Shown: positions 4,732 through 64,000, numbered from the stretch's first letter. The stretch is DNA of 64,000 nucleotides from an uncultured bacterium (GCA_964514655.1 CAZEQY010000006.1:33609-97608); one strand, 5' to 3'. Translations and numbers: made by a program. The notes: generated by a model from the letters alone, not told the origin.

Positions 4732-6300
4732 TTATTGCTGTTGAAGAAAGGTTAGTCCTTCAGGAATTATAAGTTCATCTTCAAAATAGTGTTTTTGATA
4801 TGGAGTTATGTAGCTGTCAAAGTGAGCATTAGTAAAATAGGAGCTTAACCCAAGGCCATTATAGGCAGCATGCATCGAAAAGTTAAAAAAACCGATTTTT
4901 TTTAGGAACTTTGTGGAGAAGAGTATTTCGTGTTCTCTCCTAAGCTTTCTTGTTGCGATTGCTAGCAACGATGAGGCCACAGTCAGCACATAGATCTGCT
5001 CTTTAGTAAACGGGGTTTTATGATGGGCGTCTATAAAGCGAGTTGTAACTTTGATGAACCGTTTTATCTCTGTGGGAGTTTTTGGGTTTATATCAAGCAG
5101 AGATGGTATTACCTTTTCCAAAGTGTCGATGCTAAACTGGCCGTGTGTTAAACGCGTTAGAGCCGTTTGTAGGGTATTTGCTTGGTGCCAAACGGCCTTG
5201 GGCGCTTGTGTTGGAGGGGGAGGGCGTACGCCGACTTGTATCTTAGGAGTCTTTGTTGCTTGCACTTTTTTGGGTGGCTTTAGCTGCTTTTTCATTGTCT
5301 TTAGTAGATCAGGTAGTTCTAACTTTCGCTTTTTTAGGCTATGCTGAAGTGATCGTACGATTTCTAGAGTAACCGTTATTTGTGTGCTGTTATTGCCCCA
5401 GCCACTTTTAATTTGCCTATAAGACTTTAATAGTGCTTCTACTCTTCCTAGATCTCGAAACGTTTTATAGCTTGCTTTATCTAATTGCGAACGTACGATA
5501 GAGAGCACACAAAGTGCGCTGCATGATCCGCCTATTTGTCCGTGGCCCCAGAGGCGTTGATCGAGGCTTGGTGGAGCAAGCCTTCCTTTAAGTTGTGGGA
5601 GTATTTTTTCATAAAGGTTTTCTACGGACCCGTGTTGATCATTATCAAGAAGTTGATTGATGAAGGAGGAGCCTTCTCTACACAGGTGTTCTTCTGTAAC
5701 ATCAAGAAGTTCAAGAGCTGTCTGAAAGCGCAGCTTGCCGTCAGTTTCTACATTTCTATAGTGATAATTATCAATTCCTGCACCTTGGTTATGCTGCACC
5801 ACCTTATATATCTTTTTTCCTGATTCATCTATTCCCGTGCAGGTGATAAAAAGCATCATAGCATGTTTACTGCTGCTGCTGGGGATTGCAAGGCTTTTGC
5901 CGACCGCTAGGTTTTTGATGTCCTGCTTGATGATTTTTGGTGCAATGTCTATCTCACATAGTCTTTGGGCATAGGATAGTGCTTGAATCAAATCTGCGGG
6001 TGGATTTTCTAGTTTTCCTAATAGCTTTATTGTTTTGGCTGTAGCAAAACTCGTGAGATTGCCAGAAAGGTTCCCTCTAGCAAGGTGTTCTGCAAACATA
6101 TGGGTTTGCCACTTTAAAGCATTGTTGCCAATAACATGGCTATATAACCAGCCAAAGAGCTTGCGAATCTTAGCTATAAGACCAGCTGCTATTTGCTGGT
6201 TATTTAAGAGAGTAAATTGACGGGCATATCTTGTAGTAAAAAGGCTATGTTGAGGCTCGTCTTTTCGCTCGTGTGGCCTGCTCGGCTGAATAAACACCAT
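4732..6300 (-). CDS. Hypothetical protein, paralog of 1755..2831; possible His/Asn/Cys cysteine peptidase
   Basis: 522-aa ORF with RBS-like AAGGAG upstream of the ATG. Candidate triad: H146 (SSKHAMMLF), N171 (VVQHNQG), Q255/C260 (GQIGGSCSALC). A Pro/Lys-rich linker (KPPKKVQATKTPKIQVGVRPPPPTQAPK) precedes a C-terminal helical region. Confidence 0.6.
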   Translation of the reverse strand: MVFIQPSRPHERKDEPQHSLFTTRYARQFTLLNNQQIAAGLIAKIRKLFGWLYSHVIGNNALKWQTHMFAEHLARGNLSGNLTSFATAKTIKLLGKLENPPADLIQALSYAQRLCEIDIAPKIIKQDIKNLAVGKSLAIPSSSSKHAMMLFITCTGIDESGKKIYKVVQHNQGAGIDNYHYRNVETDGKLRFQTALELLDVTEEHLCREGSSFINQLLDNDQHGSVENLYEKILPQLKGRLAPPSLDQRLWGHGQIGGSCSALCVLSIVRSQLDKASYKTFRDLGRVEALLKSYRQIKSGWGNNSTQITVTLEIVRSLQHSLKKRKLELPDLLKTMKKQLKPPKKVQATKTPKIQVGVRPPPPTQAPKAVWHQANTLQTALTRLTHGQFSIDTLEKVIPSLLDINPKTPTEIKRFIKVTTRFIDAHHKTPFTKEQIYVLTVASSLLAIATRKLRREHEILFSTKFLKKIGFFNFSMHAAYNGLGLSSYFTNAHFDSYITPYQKHYFEDELIIPEGLTFLQQQ

Positions 6301-6358
6301 ATCCCCACTCCTTATCTATATTATAACTAATAATTTGAATTATATCAGAAAATAACGA

Positions 6359-6387
6359 TTGCATAAAATGTAACAGTGTTATATAAT
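6359..6387 (+). promoter_or_regulatory. Sigma-70-like promoter (TTGCAT-17 nt-TATAAT) with an embedded 11-bp palindrome TAACAGTGTTA, a candidate TetR operator
   Basis: TTGCAT lies at 6359-6364 and TATAAT at 6382-6387, with a 17-nt spacer. The palindrome TAACA-G-TGTTA at 6371-6381 sits inside that spacer. The site is about 22 nt upstream of the tetR-family ATG and its AGGAGA RBS. Confidence 0.5.
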
Positions 6388-6408
6388 TTGGGAAAAGCAG
6401 GAGAAACA

Positions 6409-6999
6409 ATGGCAATACAAGAGCGCAAGCAGCGAGAAAAAGAGCAATTTAAGGCGCAAGTTCTTGAGGCGGCATATGCGATAATCAGAAAGGGTGGGCT
6501 AGAAGCGCTTTCACTAAGAAAGCTAGCTAGTGCACTTGAGTATAGCACAACAAAGCTTTACCACGAATTTGGCGAAAAAGAACAAATACTATCTCTTTTG
6601 GCAGAAGACATCTGCAAGAGACAAAACATTCGGCTAGAGGCATTGGAAAAGATGCCAACTGCTGAAGAGCAGTTTTTACTGCTTACACATGAGGCTATTT
6701 GTTTTTATGTGCAAGAGCCTAGTTCGGCCGAAGTTTTGCGAGCTGTCCGGTTTAGTGATATGGCGCAGCCTATAGCATTTCAGTTGGCTGCAAGGCGTTA
6801 TCGAGCCCATCTTGAGGCTCTTAATCTGCCAAAGCTTGCTACAGAACAAGCGCTCGATGAGGCGATCATGCTAACGCGTGCATTAACACTTGGAGCGCTT
6901 AGCATTTTACATCACGGAAGTGACGAGAATAAAAAAAAATTAAGCACAAAAATAGTAGACGATGGCATTCGGCTTTTTATAGCTGGATGGAAGTCATAG
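6409..6999 (+). CDS. TetR/AcrR family transcriptional regulator
   Basis: The N-terminal HTH region (QFKAQVLEAAYAIIRKGGLEALSLRKLASALEYSTTKLYHEFGEKEQIL) is typical TetR_N. I chose the ATG at 6409, preceded by AGGAGA, over the track's GTG at 6376. Confidence 0.85.
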   Translation: MAIQERKQREKEQFKAQVLEAAYAIIRKGGLEALSLRKLASALEYSTTKLYHEFGEKEQILSLLAEDICKRQNIRLEALEKMPTAEEQFLLLTHEAICFYVQEPSSAEVLRAVRFSDMAQPIAFQLAARRYRAHLEALNLPKLATEQALDEAIMLTRALTLGALSILHHGSDENKKKLSTKIVDDGIRLFIAGWKS

Positions 7000-7006
7000 G
7001 AGAATT

Positions 7007-7781
7007 ATGATACATACAATGGTAAATGGGCTTACAGATGTTCTTTCAGAGTTTGTTTTAAGCCGGCAGTATAGTAGCGAACGTGAATTTTCAGCTACAG
7101 TTGCACAAGTGAATCACGATATAATATGCCAGCATCGGCATACGTTTACAGCGGGTGATCAAGAGGTAGTAGCAGCCATCTGGCAAAGCTATCTAGAAAT
7201 ACGTCGTGTAGAATATATACCCATTCAAGTTCAAGAGTTGATTTTTTTGCTACGCGAAAGACCCGGGCTTGAAAGATTTAAAATGCGCCCATATTGTAAT
7301 ATGGGCGCATTTTAAATCTCTTCAATCGCGGGACTTTGGCGCGCAAAAAAACCAACTCTTGAACTTGAATGGGTATAACTACCTGGCAAGACTTTCTGAA
7401 AGCATACGACACTGTGTTTTTGATAAGGCGTTTGTTGAAGCTGAGATGGCGGAGGGCAATTTCATAGATTCAGCCCATCATCTAGAGTCAAGGCTCATAC
7501 GACCATATATCTCGATAATTTTTCAGGAACATGTTGTAAGTTTGAGGTTAGAAAGGACAATGAAGCCTGAAGAGCTTCACAGGAGATTATATCGAGTGTT
7601 AGAGCTAAACACTCTGCCTCTTTCGCGCGCGCTTTTTGCCAAATTATCAGTAGAGCAGCTAAAAAGCGTTATGGATGTACTTGAAACAAGTGCAGGCAAA
7701 AAACTTTTCGAGCTAGAACTTGCATGGCTGCAGCTGTACCGAGCAAGAAAAGCAGGAAATTTTGTTGATCATAAAAATTAG
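7007..7781 (+). pseudogene. Gene of unknown function split into two out-of-frame ORFs (7007..7315 and 7269..7781) by insertion of a palindromic element
   Basis: Deleting 7218..7377 (160 nt) joins ...RRVEY to NYLARLSES... in one frame. That gives 615 nt, or 204 codons plus a stop. See the mobile_element at 7216..7377. Confidence 0.7.
7216..7377. mobile_element. MITE-like long palindromic element, copy 1 (162 bp including flanking TA dinucleotides)
   Basis: Perfect 25-bp terminal inverted repeats: TATACCCATTCAAGTTCAAGAGTTG (7216-7240) and CAACTCTTGAACTTGAATGGGTATA (7353-7377). The arms are imperfectly complementary throughout. A perfect central palindrome AAAATGCGCCCATATTGTAATATGGGCGCATTTT lies at 7280-7313. 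TA is present at both ends. A second copy lies at 54896..55038. Confidence 0.8.
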
Positions 7782-7821
7782 AGTACCTATTGTTTTGTTC
7801 AGTATATAACCGGGGGTGGAT

Positions 7822-8907
7822 ATGAACAAACAAGTGCTCGCTTTATGCTTTGTCTTTGTGCCGCTATGTGCCTTTGCGTCACATAAAAACACTGTTGTTG
7901 CAACGATCAATGTTGGTGTAACGCCAGATGGCCTTGCCATTACGCCTGATAGTCACTATGCATATGTTGTGAACAACAATAATTATGGCATTGCTGATCA
8001 AGATTCTGTCAGCGTTTTAGACCTTAAAAATAACACCCTTAAAGAAACCATCCACGATGCAAGCTTTAATGAGCCATTTAGAGTGGCAATAAGCCCAAGT
8101 GGCAAAAAAGCCTATGTAGCAAATAGCAACGGCACAACACTTTCTGTCATCGATACCAAACACAATACTGTAACAGAGGTTATCGATGGTTTTGATGGGC
8201 CTTCCGGTATTGTGATAACGCCAAATGGCAAATATGGCTACGTTAATAACTATGGTGGCCCAGATGGCGTTGGTAGTGGTAATGGCCGCACTGTAAGCGT
8301 TGTTGACCTTCATGCAAATGCTATTGTTGAAGATATCATCGTAGACTTGGCACCAGCTGCTCTAGCAATGGCTCCGGATGGTAAATTCGTTTATGTTATC
8401 AATTATGTCGACGGCACGCCAAACACAGGCACACTAAGTATCATTAGAACAAAAGATAATACAGTTGTCGATACAGTGCCTGGCCTTTTTGGACCTTTTG
8501 GTATAGCCATAACGCCAGATGGCAAACATGCCTATGTAACAAATTTTGGCAGTAATGATTTTGCCCCGATTGGCACAACTGTGAGCGTAGTAAGCTTGCA
8601 CCATCACCCAAAAATTGTAGATACGATCGATGTTGCGATACAGCCATCCGGCATTGCAATAACCCCAAATGGCCGCTATGCCTATGTGTCAAACTATAAT
8701 ACGCTTTACGCTGGTGCTCACTTTACAAACCTAACGCCAGGGGCCGGAACCGTAAATATCATCGACACGCATACACACGAGGTGATACCTCCCACAATAG
8801 CCGTAGGACAATCTCCAAACACTGTCACTGTATCGCCAAATGGCAAATACGCTTACGTAACAAACTTTATCTCCAACACCGTGAACGTCATTCAGTTAAA
8901 AGACTAA
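7822..8907 (+). CDS. Secreted YVTN-family beta-propeller repeat protein
   Basis: Signal peptide MNKQVLALCFVFVPLCAFA. About 7 repeats of the type ITPDGKYAYVTN / ISPSGKKAYVANSN / VSPNGKYAYVTNF. I chose the ATG at 7822 over the GTG at 7816. Confidence 0.8.
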   Translation: MNKQVLALCFVFVPLCAFASHKNTVVATINVGVTPDGLAITPDSHYAYVVNNNNYGIADQDSVSVLDLKNNTLKETIHDASFNEPFRVAISPSGKKAYVANSNGTTLSVIDTKHNTVTEVIDGFDGPSGIVITPNGKYGYVNNYGGPDGVGSGNGRTVSVVDLHANAIVEDIIVDLAPAALAMAPDGKFVYVINYVDGTPNTGTLSIIRTKDNTVVDTVPGLFGPFGIAITPDGKHAYVTNFGSNDFAPIGTTVSVVSLHHHPKIVDTIDVAIQPSGIAITPNGRYAYVSNYNTLYAGAHFTNLTPGAGTVNIIDTHTHEVIPPTIAVGQSPNTVTVSPNGKYAYVTNFISNTVNVIQLKD

Positions 8908-14971: not shown

Positions 14972-15053
14972 AGATCACCTCTTCTGTTGCTATACTCAAA
15001 ATATCGATTTTTGAATAGTAGAGATAATACTCAATTAGGTAATCTTGTTGGCG

Positions 15054-15860
15054 ATGAAGAAAAAGTACTTGTCGGAACTGCATATTTATCCCGTTAAGTC
15101 ATGTAAGGGGATGTCGCTTCGTAGCGTAAAGGTGGGTCCAAAAGGTCCTGCTATGGACCGTCGTTGGATGGTTGTTGATAAAGATGGCCGATTCCTTTCG
15201 CAGCGTGTGCTTCCTAAAATGGCAATAATCCATGCTTACTTTGATGATCGCTACCTTTTTCTTTCTGCTCCGGGAATGGTGCCACTCATGGTGCCTAATG
15301 CGCCGGCTTCTGAAACGCGCGATGTGGTGGTGTGGAAGGATACGTGCCATGCCCACGATATGGGAGACAAGGCAGCATCTTGGATCAGTGAATTTCTCAA
15401 AACGGAAGCTCGTCTTGTCTTTTTACCTGAAGAGTCCATTAGAAAGGTAAATCCTGACTACGCAACAAATCCTGAAAATCAGGTTGGCTTTGCTGACGGC
15501 TTTCCATTTTTATTGATATCTGAAAACTCTCTTCAGGATCTCTGTAAGCGCATTGGCAGAAAACTGCGGATGAACCGCTTTCGCCCAAACCTTGTCGTAG
15601 CTAACTGCGAGCCTTATGAAGAAGATAGCTGGAAGAAAGTTCAGATCGGTGAGATTATCTTTCACTTTGTAAAACCATGCTCGCGCTGCATTATTCCAAC
15701 AGTTGATCAAGAGCGCGCTGAATCAAGCCCTGAGCCTCTTGCAACGCTATCTCGCTTCCGAAAAGTAGACGGCCGCATTCTCTTTGGCCAAAATCTAATC
15801 CACGAAGGTACCGGCACTATCGAAGTCGGCACCGAAGTCAAAATCCTCGAACGCCACTAA
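15054..15860 (+). CDS. MOSC domain-containing protein (MOSC_N beta-barrel plus MOSC; YcbX-like)
   Basis: LSELHIYPVKSCKGMSL (MOSC_N start), FADGFPFLLISENSL, RFRPNLVV, and the conserved Cys in KPCSRCIIPTVDQ. Confidence 0.85.
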   Translation: MKKKYLSELHIYPVKSCKGMSLRSVKVGPKGPAMDRRWMVVDKDGRFLSQRVLPKMAIIHAYFDDRYLFLSAPGMVPLMVPNAPASETRDVVVWKDTCHAHDMGDKAASWISEFLKTEARLVFLPEESIRKVNPDYATNPENQVGFADGFPFLLISENSLQDLCKRIGRKLRMNRFRPNLVVANCEPYEEDSWKKVQIGEIIFHFVKPCSRCIIPTVDQERAESSPEPLATLSRFRKVDGRILFGQNLIHEGTGTIEVGTEVKILERH

Positions 15861-53946: not shown

Positions 53947-54893
53947 TGCTGCGCGTCTTTCTTAGCGGCCTTTTTGTGGGCGCGGCTGATATTGTTCCCG
54001 GCATTTCCGGAGGTACTGTTGCCTTTATCATAGGTATCTATGAAGAGCTTTTAGCAAGTATTGCAAGCATCAATGCTCAAGCGATCAAAAAGCTCTGCAC
54101 GCTGCAATTTCGTGCCTTTTTTACTGCCGTTCGGTGGCAGTTTTTGTGCCTCTTTATTTTGGGGGCAGCTTGCTCGTTCGTCACTCTTGCAAAGACCTTT
54201 CAGTATTTTCTCAATCACGAGATATATAGAACCTTTCTCTATTCAGCCTTTATGGGTCTTGTTGTAGGTTCTGTGATCTTTTGTGCAAAACAGCTTTCTA
54301 AATATACCCTAAAGGTATTTTTGTGTGTAACAATCGGTGCAGTTTTGGCTTATTTTTTGTCTGGCACTGACCTTATGCCAACTGCCGGCACAAACTCTGA
54401 GCAACTAGTAGACCTTTGGGTAATAGCCTGCGGTGCAATGGCCATATCAGCTATGCTTCTTCCTGGCATTTCTGGTAGCTATATTCTTAACATACTTGGC
54501 ATGTATGGTCCCATCCTTGGCGCCTTTGTTGCTTGGGTTGATGGCATCAAACAGGGGATCTTTGACTTTGCCTCTTTTCGCATTGTTTTGAGCATGGGTA
54601 TCGGTATAGCTCTTGGCGCTATCTTCTTTAGCCGCATTGTGCGATATCTGCTAGCCACTTACCGAGAAGCCACAATAGCTCTTTTAGTAGGCTTTATGGT
54701 GGGTGCCATGCGTTCAATCTGGCCCTTCTGGAGCGTGGAACAGACAGGTGATATGCGCCTACAGCTTGTAGAGCCTATCTTGCCAGAAGTTACTTCGCTT
54801 CATTTTGCCTATTCATGTGCCTTTTTTGCACTCGGCCTATCGCTTGTCTTTTTAGTCGAGCACCTCGCAACAAAAAAACAAGTCCAGAATTAG
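53946..54893 (+). CDS. DUF368 family membrane protein (family of PopT undecaprenyl-phosphate translocases)
   Basis: Duplicated motifs VPGISGGTVAFIIGIYEEL and LPGISGSYILNILGMY. The start overlaps the rodZ stop (ATAATG). Confidence 0.8.
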   Translation: MLRVFLSGLFVGAADIVPGISGGTVAFIIGIYEELLASIASINAQAIKKLCTLQFRAFFTAVRWQFLCLFILGAACSFVTLAKTFQYFLNHEIYRTFLYSAFMGLVVGSVIFCAKQLSKYTLKVFLCVTIGAVLAYFLSGTDLMPTAGTNSEQLVDLWVIACGAMAISAMLLPGISGSYILNILGMYGPILGAFVAWVDGIKQGIFDFASFRIVLSMGIGIALGAIFFSRIVRYLLATYREATIALLVGFMVGAMRSIWPFWSVEQTGDMRLQLVEPILPEVTSLHFAYSCAFFALGLSLVFLVEHLATKKQVQN

Positions 54894-54895
54894 TT

Positions 54896-55038
54896 TATAC
54901 ACCCATTCAAGTTCAAGCCCGGGCCTAGGATGTTGATTTAACGTGGTTTTATAAAAATGACTTAATGGTAAAATGTGTCCTTCGTGCCCGAGCCTTTCGC
55001 GCAGCAAAAAAACTAACTCTTGAACTTGAATGGGTATA
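54896..55038. mobile_element. MITE-like palindromic element, copy 2 (143 bp, intergenic, left arm internally shortened)
   Basis: Left end TATACACCCATTCAAGTTCAAG. Right end GCAAAAAAACTAACTCTTGAACTTGAATGGGTATA. Both match the termini of copy 1, and both copies contain CCCGGGC. It starts 3 nt after the DUF368 stop and ends 8 nt before the truA stop. Confidence 0.8.
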
Positions 55039-55045
55039 CAATCAC

Positions 55046-55834
55046 TTAGGCGCGGTCAATGACGCTGGTTGTGAGCGTGTAAAAGACTTTGTGTAGGGAT
55101 AGCCCGCGAGCAGGGGCGGTTATGCCGGCTTGGGGGCGCTTAGCTCCTTGAAAGAGATTTGCGACTTGGCCGCAGGTGAGTTTGCCAAGGCCTACATAGA
55201 CGAGTGTACCGACGATATTGCGGCACATTTTGTAAAGAAAGTTATTTGCCGTGACCTTTATTTCTAAGACATCTTTAGTGCCTGTAGAAATGTCAATGCT
55301 CGTAACGCGTCTTACGGTGTCGTTATAGTCTTTACCTTTACGGTGGTTGCGAAAGGCTATAAAGTCATGCTCGCCGGTGATGATGCCTGCTGCTCGCTGC
55401 ATAAGCTCTAGGTTTAGTGGTAAAGCGACATGCCAGTGTGTATGGCGGTAAAATGGCAAGAGGGTAGGGCCGGTATAAATTCTATAGACATACTGCTTTG
55501 CTGTAGCTGACATAGTGGCATGAAAGTCAGTCTCAGGTGCGCAAGTTGCCGATAAAACCCGAATGTCATCAGGCAGTAAGCAGTTTAGAGCGTACATCAG
55601 CCGCTCTAAATCAAGGTCATCTTTTGTAGTTATAAAGTTTACAACCTGGCCTTCAGCATGCACGCCGCGGTCTGTACGGCTTGCTGCTTGAACGTCTACC
55701 GGGTGCTGCAGGATCTTTTCTAAGGTGCTTTGTAGGACAAATTCAATGCTTGGCTGAAGATGATCACGATCTGTCTTTTGCCAGCCAAGATAGCATGTAC
55801 CCTCATACGCAATAAGCAGCACTACATTTAGCAT
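55046..55834 (-). CDS. truA: tRNA pseudouridine(38-40) synthase
   Basis: Catalytic Asp motif AASRTDRGVHAEGQVVNF. N-terminal YEGTCYLGWQ. Confidence 0.9.
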   Translation of the reverse strand: MLNVVLLIAYEGTCYLGWQKTDRDHLQPSIEFVLQSTLEKILQHPVDVQAASRTDRGVHAEGQVVNFITTKDDLDLERLMYALNCLLPDDIRVLSATCAPETDFHATMSATAKQYVYRIYTGPTLLPFYRHTHWHVALPLNLELMQRAAGIITGEHDFIAFRNHRKGKDYNDTVRRVTSIDISTGTKDVLEIKVTANNFLYKMCRNIVGTLVYVGLGKLTCGQVANLFQGAKRPQAGITAPARGLSLHKVFYTLTTSVIDRA

Positions 55835-55837
55835 GTA

Positions 55838-56425
55838 TTAGCCGTGCTTAAAGAGTAAAAGTATACCCTCGCTTAGTCGCTGTACAGAGATAAGCACTAG
55901 CACCATACCCATAAGCTTCTCGCACGCTGTAATGCCGCTAGAGCCTAAAAGGCCAAGAATTCTACGCGAGTTAATCAAGATGATGCTTGATGCAAGCCAT
56001 GCAAGCAAGATTGCTACAAGCATTGGCCACATTCTTGTTTCTGTGTCAGCATAGAGCATAATTGTTGCTAAAAGTGCAGGCCCTGCAATCATCGGCACGG
56101 CAAGAGGCACAACAAATGGCTCACCGGTTAGGCCGTTAGTATCTTCTCGCTCAGTATTTCCAAAGATAATCTTAATTGCGATGATAAAGAGAATAAGCCC
56201 AGATGCAAGGTATACTGTTGTGTCAGAAATAGCAAGCAGGTTAAAGATAAATTCGCCCAAGAGGTTAAACGCTAGCATAAAGCCAAGAGCAATAAACATC
56301 TCGCGCCATATGATGAATTTTTGGCGCTTAGGTTCTATGTGTTTGAGGCATTCTATAAAGCCCTTAATATGGCCAACAGGGTCCATGATCAGAAATAAAA
56401 TGAGGGTAAGTGTGACTAAGGTCAT
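55838..56425 (-). CDS. MarC family (UPF0056) integral membrane protein
   Basis: About 6 TM segments. Family-typical DPVGHIKGF and VPLAVPMIAGPALLATIM. Confidence 0.8.
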   Translation of the reverse strand: MTLVTLTLILFLIMDPVGHIKGFIECLKHIEPKRQKFIIWREMFIALGFMLAFNLLGEFIFNLLAISDTTVYLASGLILFIIAIKIIFGNTEREDTNGLTGEPFVVPLAVPMIAGPALLATIMLYADTETRMWPMLVAILLAWLASSIILINSRRILGLLGSSGITACEKLMGMVLVLISVQRLSEGILLLFKHG

Positions 56426-57012
56426 GAAAACTCCTTCAAAAACATCGTAAAGCCTTTAACAAAAATTTCGGTAGAAATAAGAGCCAAGATCATACCCATA
56501 AGCTGTTCAAGAGCGATTAAGCCTCGTTTTCCAAGCAGCTTTTGTAGGTAGGCTGAGCTTACTACAACTGCCGTTACGCCAACATAGGCAATAAGGCAGG
56601 CAAAGAACATCTTGGGCATATTTTGTTCTTTCGCAGAAAAGTACATGATTGTTGAAAGCACGCCGCCCCCAGAGATAAGCGGAATAGCTATTGGCACAAT
56701 AAAGGGCTCTTGGGGAATGCGATCAGATCCATTTGTAGGAGTCTTTGGAAAGATCATGCTGAGTGCAATAAGAAGCAGTACTGTACCGCCCGCTAAGCTT
56801 ATTGCATAGGGCTTAATTTGAATGATGTCAAAAAATGCTTTGCCTACAAAAAGGTAGAAGAGAGCAAGCATAAACGAAAAAATAGATTCTCTAAATAAAA
56901 TAACTTTTTGTCTTTCAAAAGTAAAGTTTTTTACTAGCGACACAAATACCGGGGCATTTCCTATTGGGTTTGCCACCAAAAAGAGCGCAAGTGCAATCTG
57001 CCAAGTAGACAC
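56422..57012 (-). CDS. MarC family (UPF0056) integral membrane protein, tandem paralog
   Basis: ANPIGNAPVF and VPIAIPLISGGGVLSTIM. 4-nt overlap with the downstream paralog. Confidence 0.8.
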   Translation of the reverse strand: MSTWQIALALFLVANPIGNAPVFVSLVKNFTFERQKVILFRESIFSFMLALFYLFVGKAFFDIIQIKPYAISLAGGTVLLLIALSMIFPKTPTNGSDRIPQEPFIVPIAIPLISGGGVLSTIMYFSAKEQNMPKMFFACLIAYVGVTAVVVSSAYLQKLLGKRGLIALEQLMGMILALISTEIFVKGFTMFLKEFS

Positions 57013-57021
57013 TCTGGTTTC

Positions 57022-62077: not shown

Positions 62078-64000
<1,923 letters not shown>

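Follow-up and report, generated by a model that had tools for sequence, protein, structure and literature searches.

Directly downstream of a TetR-family regulator, two open reading frames overlap in different frames, and the overlap falls across a long palindrome. They lie in a 64,000-nucleotide stretch of DNA from an uncultured bacterium, referred to here as the window. The question raised by this locus is whether these are two small genes or one gene that has been split by a mobile element, and, if the latter, what the element is, how it moved, and what has become of the gene. The initial annotation had favored a MITE-like insertion. Our analyses lead to the same view: very probably, a MITE inserted at a TA dinucleotide in codons 70–71 of a conserved gene of approximately 200 codons, which follows a TetR gene in a chlamydia-like bacterium. 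The features discussed are listed in Table 1.

Table 1. Features of the interrupted locus and of the second copy of the element, in window coordinates.
Feature	Position	Strand	Description	Basis
TetR-family regulator	6409..6999	+	Directly upstream, probably same operon	Pfam TetR_N, E = 5e-8
Interrupted gene, 5' part	7007..7217	+	Codons 1–70 and first base of codon 71	GGAG before ATG; ortholog alignment
MITE copy 1	7216..7377	.	158-bp palindromic element (7218–7375) plus TA on each side	Inverted-repeat scan, self-reverse-complement comparison, excision test, fold
Left TA	7216..7217		Inferred target-site duplication	Family ends all TA-flanked where assessable; frame test
Left terminal inverted repeat	7218..7250		TACCCATTCAAGTTCAAGAGTTGATTTTTTTGC	Repeat scan; terminal arm invariant in alignment A3
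Central hairpin	7274..7319		Perfect, 22 bp; variable part of the family	Repeat scan; compensatory changes
Right terminal inverted repeat	7343..7375			Repeat scan; terminal arm invariant in alignment A3
Right TA	7376..7377		Inferred target-site duplication	Family ends all TA-flanked where assessable; frame test
Interrupted gene, 3' part	7378..7781	+	Remainder of codon 71 to stop	Ortholog alignment
MITE copy 2, degenerate	54896..55038	.	Right arm intact; left arm with 2-nt insertion and internal deletion; center non-palindromic

Anatomy of the palindrome

The ORF calls agree with the initial annotation in placing 7007..7315 (102 aa) and 7269..7781 (170 aa) in different frames, overlapping across the palindrome. 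The inverted-repeat scan likewise confirmed its description of a palindrome at 7216–7377 that has perfect 25-bp terminal inverted repeats (TIRs) and ends in TA on both sides. The palindrome is 162 bp long and near-perfect. Its 35-nt arms (7216–7250 and 7343–7377) are complementary at 34 positions (97%), with the outermost 25 of 25 paired, and the inner hairpin (7274–7295/7298–7319) is 100% complementary over 22 nt. When compared with its own reverse complement, the stretch is identical at 128 of 162 positions without gaps, or 89% with gaps. It is predicted to fold as RNA into one long hairpin with an energy of −108 kcal/mol, compared with −37.4 ± 3.9 for shuffled sequences (z = −17.9).

The termini read TATACCC.../...GGGTATA, with the end sequence TACCCATTCAAGTTCAAG. 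The 25-nt TIR occurs three times in the window, where 0.00 occurrences are expected by chance. The element has no coding capacity, there being at least one stop in each of the six frames, and is slightly more AT-rich than the genome (40% and 44% GC, respectively). A consensus scan of positions 6200–8000 found no terminator-like site within it, so that it does not qualify as an intrinsic terminator (a G+C-rich stem with a T run behind it), and the scan of the same region gave fewer promoter-like matches in the element than expected by chance. No part of the window matches Rfam 15 at the gathering score.

Bacterial MITEs are defined as elements of less than 200 bp with TIRs, a terminal 5'-TA-3', a target-site duplication and a long 5'–3' stem-loop (Delihas, 2008; PMC2229807). 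The palindrome is short (below the approximately 300 bp allowed for a MITE), non-coding, bounded by TIRs and present in dispersed copies; the target-site duplication is seen indirectly, as described next.

Excision restores a single reading frame

Excision of 7218..7377, which is 160 nt and comprises the 158-bp element and one TA, produces one ORF of 204 codons (615 nt) that reads ...IRRVEYNYLARLSES... across the join, so that the 615-nt frame proposed in the initial annotation was recovered. The corresponding in-silico empty site is ...GTAGAATATAACTACC.... The two frames rejoin only for deletion lengths equal to 1 mod 3: a deletion of 162 nt generates a TAA stop at the join, and one of 158 nt leaves the frames apart. 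Because 160 nt alone restores the frame, the sole workable symmetrical model is a 158-bp element together with one duplicated copy of TA. The flanking TA could formally belong to the element; however, a 2-bp duplication is favored by the frame count and by the protein alignment described below, which has no gap. We infer the duplication from these two observations and from the TA that flanks every assessable end of the family.

A clean join has a prior chance of 1 in 3, and is therefore suggestive by itself, short of decisive. It could be a coincidence of this kind if there had never been one gene, but instead two small genes separated by a structured intergenic palindrome. We consider this extremely unlikely.

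Relatives carry one gene at this position

Orthologues were located solely by synteny with the TetR gene rather than by direct homology search. Relatives have an intact gene encoding 190–253 aa after the TetR orthologue. A 1.25-Mb contig (L015, ERZ25039475) has an uninterrupted gene of 190 aa after TetR and GCA_018239985.1 (L016) has one of 248 aa; in both cases the two called genes overlap by 4 nt, and the TetR protein, immediately before this intact member of the family, is 55–59% identical to that in the window. The uninterrupted orthologue implied by the initial annotation is therefore present beside TetR in both.

Over residues 2–187, the rebuilt 204-aa protein can be aligned with that of L015 (26% identity, E = 2e-11), and it also matches the L016 protein (E = 1e-7). 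The junction is free of gaps in both alignments, where SYLEIRRVEY/NYLARL (the slash marks the join) is matched by AYQTVRKVEYRFCDAA and YLQVRRIEYTFCQEV, respectively, although a one-codon shift at the junction is remotely possible because the identity between orthologues is low (21–26%). A profile built from the three proteins recovered two further family members, P0024 and P0025, and all five aligned sequences share R66, E69 and Y70 at the insertion junction. The homologues spanning the join that were anticipated for a genuine single gene thus do exist. On this alignment, the insertion sits in the most conserved motif of the host-gene family.

The two halves were also compared separately with the intact orthologue P0022. 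Residues 2–70 of the N-terminal half match residues 5–73 (E = 5e-5), with the alignment stopping exactly at the junction, and the 3' half matches residues 102–179 (E = 4e-7); the two matches are collinear. The notion of two independent genes draws its support from the isolation of the protein in databases. No Pfam, NCBIfam or PDB-profile match was found for the rebuilt protein, a word-indexed protein search gave zero matches, and phmmer against 1.8 billion representatives returned its own fragments and one weak match, P0003. Against two genes stand the syntenic orthologues, which are single and collinear with both halves, the N-terminal alignment that ends exactly at the junction, and the occurrence of the palindrome as a dispersed repeat at unrelated loci.

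The AlphaFold model of the rebuilt protein is all-helical and of low confidence (pLDDT 60), and places the junction inside a helix comprising residues 49–84. P0003 is a repeat protein of 1191 aa, and its weak phmmer match was treated as motif-level or spurious. It repeats the motif Y-V-Q-A-R-Q-I-Q-Y-N-T-S-D-F-L-D-S many times, which resembles the junction motif SYLEIRRVEYNYLARLSES (library-wide E = 3e-6); this likeness may reflect either real domain homology or a compositional effect.

The regulator upstream

The TetR stop codon occupies 6997–6999 and the interrupted gene starts with the ATG at 7007, and the two are probably co-transcribed. The initial annotation described the interrupted gene as the cargo of the regulator. 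The adjacency conserved in L015 and L016 agrees with this description, but it does not extend to all TetR orthologues: in L017 (3001–4787) and L018 (3001–4798), where the TetR proteins are 54–55% identical to that in the window, the downstream gene instead encodes an FAD-binding monooxygenase of 392–393 aa. The gene that follows this regulator therefore varies between lineages.

The divergent promoter region ahead of the TetR gene is AT-rich and contains, approximately 30 nt before the start, a perfect 11-bp palindrome, TAACAGTGTTA (6371–6381). This is a candidate TetR operator, judged by its sequence and position.

The element belongs to a dispersed family

The initial annotation treated the palindrome as one member of a mobile family, and further copies do exist: a second in the window, one in a Chlamydiales MAG and several on metagenome contigs. 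Copy 2 in the window lies between convergent genes at 53946..54893 (+) and 55046..55834 (−) and takes up 143 nt of their 152-nt spacer; one of these genes is VCA0040-like and the other encodes a tRNA pseudouridine synthase. Its fold is weak (z = −4.5). Just past the tRNA pseudouridine synthase gene, two tandem genes for MarC-family membrane proteins are found at 55838–57021.

A scan of 185,579 species genomes with the 21-nt TIR core gave two loci, one of which (L001) is a full copy of 161 bp in the Chlamydiales MAG JAJFUY010000367, flanked by divergent genes; the other is a chance match to a single arm. The metagenome scan gave ten loci: copies were seen on six contigs from ERZ1066138 and on one from ERZ1066140, and three loci look unrelated. 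The two assemblies together hold at least seven copies or remnants. L012 is a full copy of 162 bp, 92% identical to the window copy, and L009 is a full copy cut by the end of its contig, 95% identical; the identity of the full copies in L001, L012 and L009 to the window copy ranges from 87% to 95%. L010 is a perfect 72-bp derivative consisting of the arms only, and L005, L008, L011 and L013 are one-armed or internally deleted remnants. The remaining loci of these TIR scans (L002, L006, L007 and L014) were rejected as chance or unrelated, being matches to a single arm in G+C-rich or coding sequence, with no TA and no second arm. No copies were found in the plasmid and viral collections searched.

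Every assessable end in the family reads TA-TACCC or GGGTA-TA, and the outer flanks are unrelated. The copy at 7216–7377 is the only one inside a gene, all others being intergenic or at gene ends. The element can be oriented, since its arms are unlike in their sub-terminal segments and this asymmetry is kept among copies; the L001 and L009 copies are inverted relative to the window copy. In L012 (115–276), a minus-strand stop-to-stop frame (221–1639, 473 codons) enters the element approximately 56 nt before its stop, and the element may supply the last codons and the stop of the neighboring gene.

The contig L011 is orthologous to window 14997–15852, comprising a MOSC gene (72% nucleotide identity over 865 nt) and the start of the next gene. 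The spacer between the MOSC and kinase genes is approximately 350 nt long and contains a remnant in L011, compared with 128 nt and no remnant in the window. Occupancy of this site therefore differs between related genomes.

Age of the insertion and reality of the assembly

Two Logan unitigs from SRR26839107 (L003 and L004) cover the same locus and encode identical TetR and β-propeller proteins. Compared with the window, L003 and L004 show 25 and 36 substitutions, respectively, which makes 61 in 11.1 kb, and no indels (identity 99.3% and 99.5%); consequently they represent a separate strain or sample. Both junctions between gene and element are present in these unitigs. As a strain of approximately 99.4% identity carries both junctions, the insertion predates the split between the strains. 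A single strain difference falls within the gene (7708 T>C, F to S), and none within the parts of the element that are covered.

The insertion is probably evolutionarily young, yet fixed in a small clade: the arms are perfect and the gene is otherwise intact, but it is not brand new, because a strain diverged by 0.6% shares it. The initial annotation had called the insertion recent, with duplication of a TA, and the element active or recently active. Duplication agrees with the frame test and the TA flanks of the family. Activity, present or recent, has indirect support; the insertion is present in two strains approximately 0.6% apart, and neither an empty-site allele nor a transposase was found. 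At the DNA level no empty site was found: exact-protein look-ups returned only the sister strain that bears the insertion, those of the fragment ORFs 7007..7315 and 7269..7781 gave zero matches, and no relative closer than about 75% nucleotide identity reaches the locus, a syntenic relative at about that identity ending 1.9 kb short.

Both unitigs stop inside the palindrome, L003 at window position 7291 and L004, coming from the other side, at 7349; the ERZ1066138 contigs L005 and L009 are likewise cut off within a copy. When these genomes are assembled from short reads, the family is probably a cause of fragmentation. The broken unitigs, and the lack of a single independent contig spanning the whole element at this locus, would also be seen if the palindrome were an assembly artefact, either a fold-back chimera or a repeat-induced misjoin. 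Unitig breaks are, however, expected at long palindromes in de Bruijn graph assembly. An artefact is hardly credible here, given that both junctions recur in unitigs from a sample differing by 0.5–0.7% from the window, and that the same element with the same boundaries is found in unrelated assemblies.

Fate of the interrupted gene

The ATG at 7007 is preceded by GGAG, and translation from it would run through 32 codons encoded by the element before reaching a TAA stop at 7313–7315. The gene shows no lesion besides the insertion. As judged from the sequence, it has most likely been inactivated, because of this stop, because the final 134 codons lack their own start and ribosome-binding site, and because the mRNA would contain the −108 kcal/mol hairpin. 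The ORFs 7007..7315 and 7269..7781 are on this reading the halves of one pseudogene, and should be treated as such in annotation.

Alternatively, the insertion might be tolerated or even useful, either with the halves expressed separately (from a restart at TTG 7269 or ATG 7446) or with the hairpin acting as a regulatory or terminator module in the TetR operon. The two halves have no further stops or frameshifts, and the gene has one substitution between strains when the overall divergence is about 0.55%, but a single change over 615 nt is not enough to gauge constraint. There is a weak promoter-like match at 7269–7297; set against it are the number of promoter-like matches in the element, which is below chance, and the absence of a convincing ribosome-binding site ahead of either possible restart. 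Other copies lie at gene ends, where hairpins could terminate transcription, but the scan found no terminator-like site in the element. Finally, the junction interrupts the best-conserved motif and, in the low-confidence model, falls midway along a long helix. We therefore regard a tolerated insertion as improbable and inactivation as the better description.

Mobilization and the central stem

In the mechanism that we propose, a non-autonomous DNA transposon of the bacterial MITE type would have inserted at the TA dinucleotide within codons 70–71. The TA would have been duplicated on insertion. The net gain of 160 nt shifts the frame, such that translation from 7007 stops within the element, and the gene would have lost its function. 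The insertion would have been carried out in trans by a cut-and-paste DDE transposase that targets TA, whose gene would lie elsewhere in the genome or have since been lost. An enzyme of the IS630/Tc1-mariner type would be the most likely, the TA duplication being the one feature that suggests it.

No transposase was found in the ORFs or gaps of the 64-kb window, nor beside any of the copies fetched. The genome, metagenome and viral scans gave no pair of TIRs at an IS-like spacing of approximately 1–1.5 kb, and no IS with termini matching those of the element.

The structure comparison covers the four full copies. Of the cells in this alignment, 97.8% pair. The terminal arms are invariant, and nearly all the variation is confined to the central stem, where five pairs have changed on both sides with pairing kept; slid controls gave 0–1 such pairs, and 10 of 500 shuffles reached five. 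These compensatory changes, in four sequences, are suggestive: either the hairpin is under selection or one arm has been corrected against the other. Selection on the hairpin itself, which would make the family more than selfish DNA, is an unlikely possibility: the hairpin might serve a mobilization step that reads the structure, or else be a domesticated module placed at gene ends in chlamydia-like bacteria that works as RNA or terminator in both directions.

Some IS5-family (IS427-group) elements also make 2-bp duplications. The family might then be mobile but moved by something other than an IS630/Tc1-mariner enzyme, that is, by an IS5/IS427-like DDE transposase, or by an HUH/RAYT-like enzyme acting on single-stranded hairpins, in which case the TATA termini would be the element's own. 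We think this unlikely while taking it seriously, since neither a partner transposase nor an IS with matching ends was found in the window and the scans, and the compensated pairing of the central hairpin would suit an enzyme that reads structure. On the other hand, the family keeps its inverted repeats at the very termini, and these repeats are what does not vary among copies, as would be the case if a DDE transposase bound there. For an HUH/RAYT enzyme in particular, the REP/RAYT elements described in PMC3733652 are 20–40 bp long with GTAG or CGTC tags, unlike this element; and insertion with no duplication does not agree with the frame test, where 162 nt fails and 160 nt succeeds. A TA-targeting enzyme of the IS630/Tc1-mariner type remains our preferred candidate.

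Comparison with known palindromic elements

The element resembles bacterial MITEs (PMC2229807) in being 158–162 bp long and non-coding, with TIRs, TA termini and a single long stem-loop, and in having multiple dispersed copies that are mostly intergenic, with an occasional one inside a gene. It differs from those described in its host, a chlamydia-like lineage, and in being only slightly more AT-rich than the genome.

Between the Correia elements (CREE/NEMIS) of Neisseria and the present element, we know of no sequence similarity past the TATA ends, and the hosts belong to different phyla. The two are alike in their general design: Correia elements, which are among those treated in PMC2229807, are approximately 105–155 bp long with long TIRs and a TA duplication, and their copies begin with TATA. 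They too have variants with internal deletions, comparable to the 72-bp L010, and no known cognate transposase.

RUP elements of Streptococcus pneumoniae, like other IS630-derived MITEs, insert at TA, and an IS630-family transposase has been proposed to mobilize them in trans (PMC2229807). The TIRs of RUP match those of IS630-Spn1, whereas here no matching IS was found and the link to IS630 comes from the TA only. By analogy, the present element would work in the same way as the Correia and RUP elements.

Rickettsia palindromic elements (RPE) offer another parallel, as they are also palindromic repeats found in coding genes of an obligate intracellular bacterium (PMC2229807). RPE are in frame and are translated with the host protein, unlike the insertion described here: its 160 nt are not divisible by 3 and introduce an in-frame stop at 7313–7315, so that the gene is disrupted. 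An RPE-type insert was rejected on these two grounds. A REP/BIME element was also rejected, the present element being 162 bp long with TATACCC.../...GGGTATA ends rather than a 20–40-bp palindrome with a GTAG or CGTC tag (PMC3733652).

The host and other features of the window

The window encodes giant ankyrin-repeat proteins, an OTU protease, a eukaryote-like kinase, collagen-repeat proteins and enzymes of the mevalonate and shikimate pathways, a gene content typical of a protist-associated intracellular bacterium. Genes for TLC and DUF2709 proteins adjoin the L016 orthologue, and DUF2709 is a domain that we take to be specific to chlamydiae. Together, the nearest copy of the element in a Chlamydiales MAG, the TLC and DUF2709 genes near the L016 orthologue and the symbiont-type genes point to a chlamydia-like host.

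A second and unrelated hairpin of approximately 153 nt follows the HMG-CoA reductase gene, in the spacer at 39059–39211. It has arms of 28 nt that are 89% complementary, and folded as RNA it reaches −68.7 kcal/mol (z = −11.3). Tandem TTAATC hexamers are present in the left arm and complementary GATCAA/GATTAA repeats in the right, and the hairpin may belong to another palindromic repeat family. Two ORFs consist of collagen triple-helix repeats (49743–51662 and 62078–63940; Pfam Collagen, E = 7e-75 and 3e-67). Each contains a nested ORF, 49990..51261 on the same strand and 62595..63695 on the opposite strand, and these are probably artefacts of the GXY repeat.

Significance

The knockout of a gene by a MITE is a textbook kind of event, here unusually clean, and changes no general concept. 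What distinguishes the locus is that the insertion can be checked from the sequence itself, together with its TA duplication, and that a conserved lineage-specific gene has been hit. The 162-bp consensus can be used as a strain-typing marker and as bait for the partner transposase, and the element can explain contig breaks in these MAGs. Full-text literature searches found no report of a MITE in Chlamydiae, and this family in environmental chlamydia-like bacteria appears to be undescribed. Mobile DNA is thought to be limited in obligate intracellular lineages such as chlamydia-like bacteria. If mobilization does involve reading of the hairpin structure, this would be a step not described for TA-duplicating MITEs; and if the hairpin has indeed been selected, the copy at 7216–7377 would record ongoing transposition in an obligate intracellular lineage.
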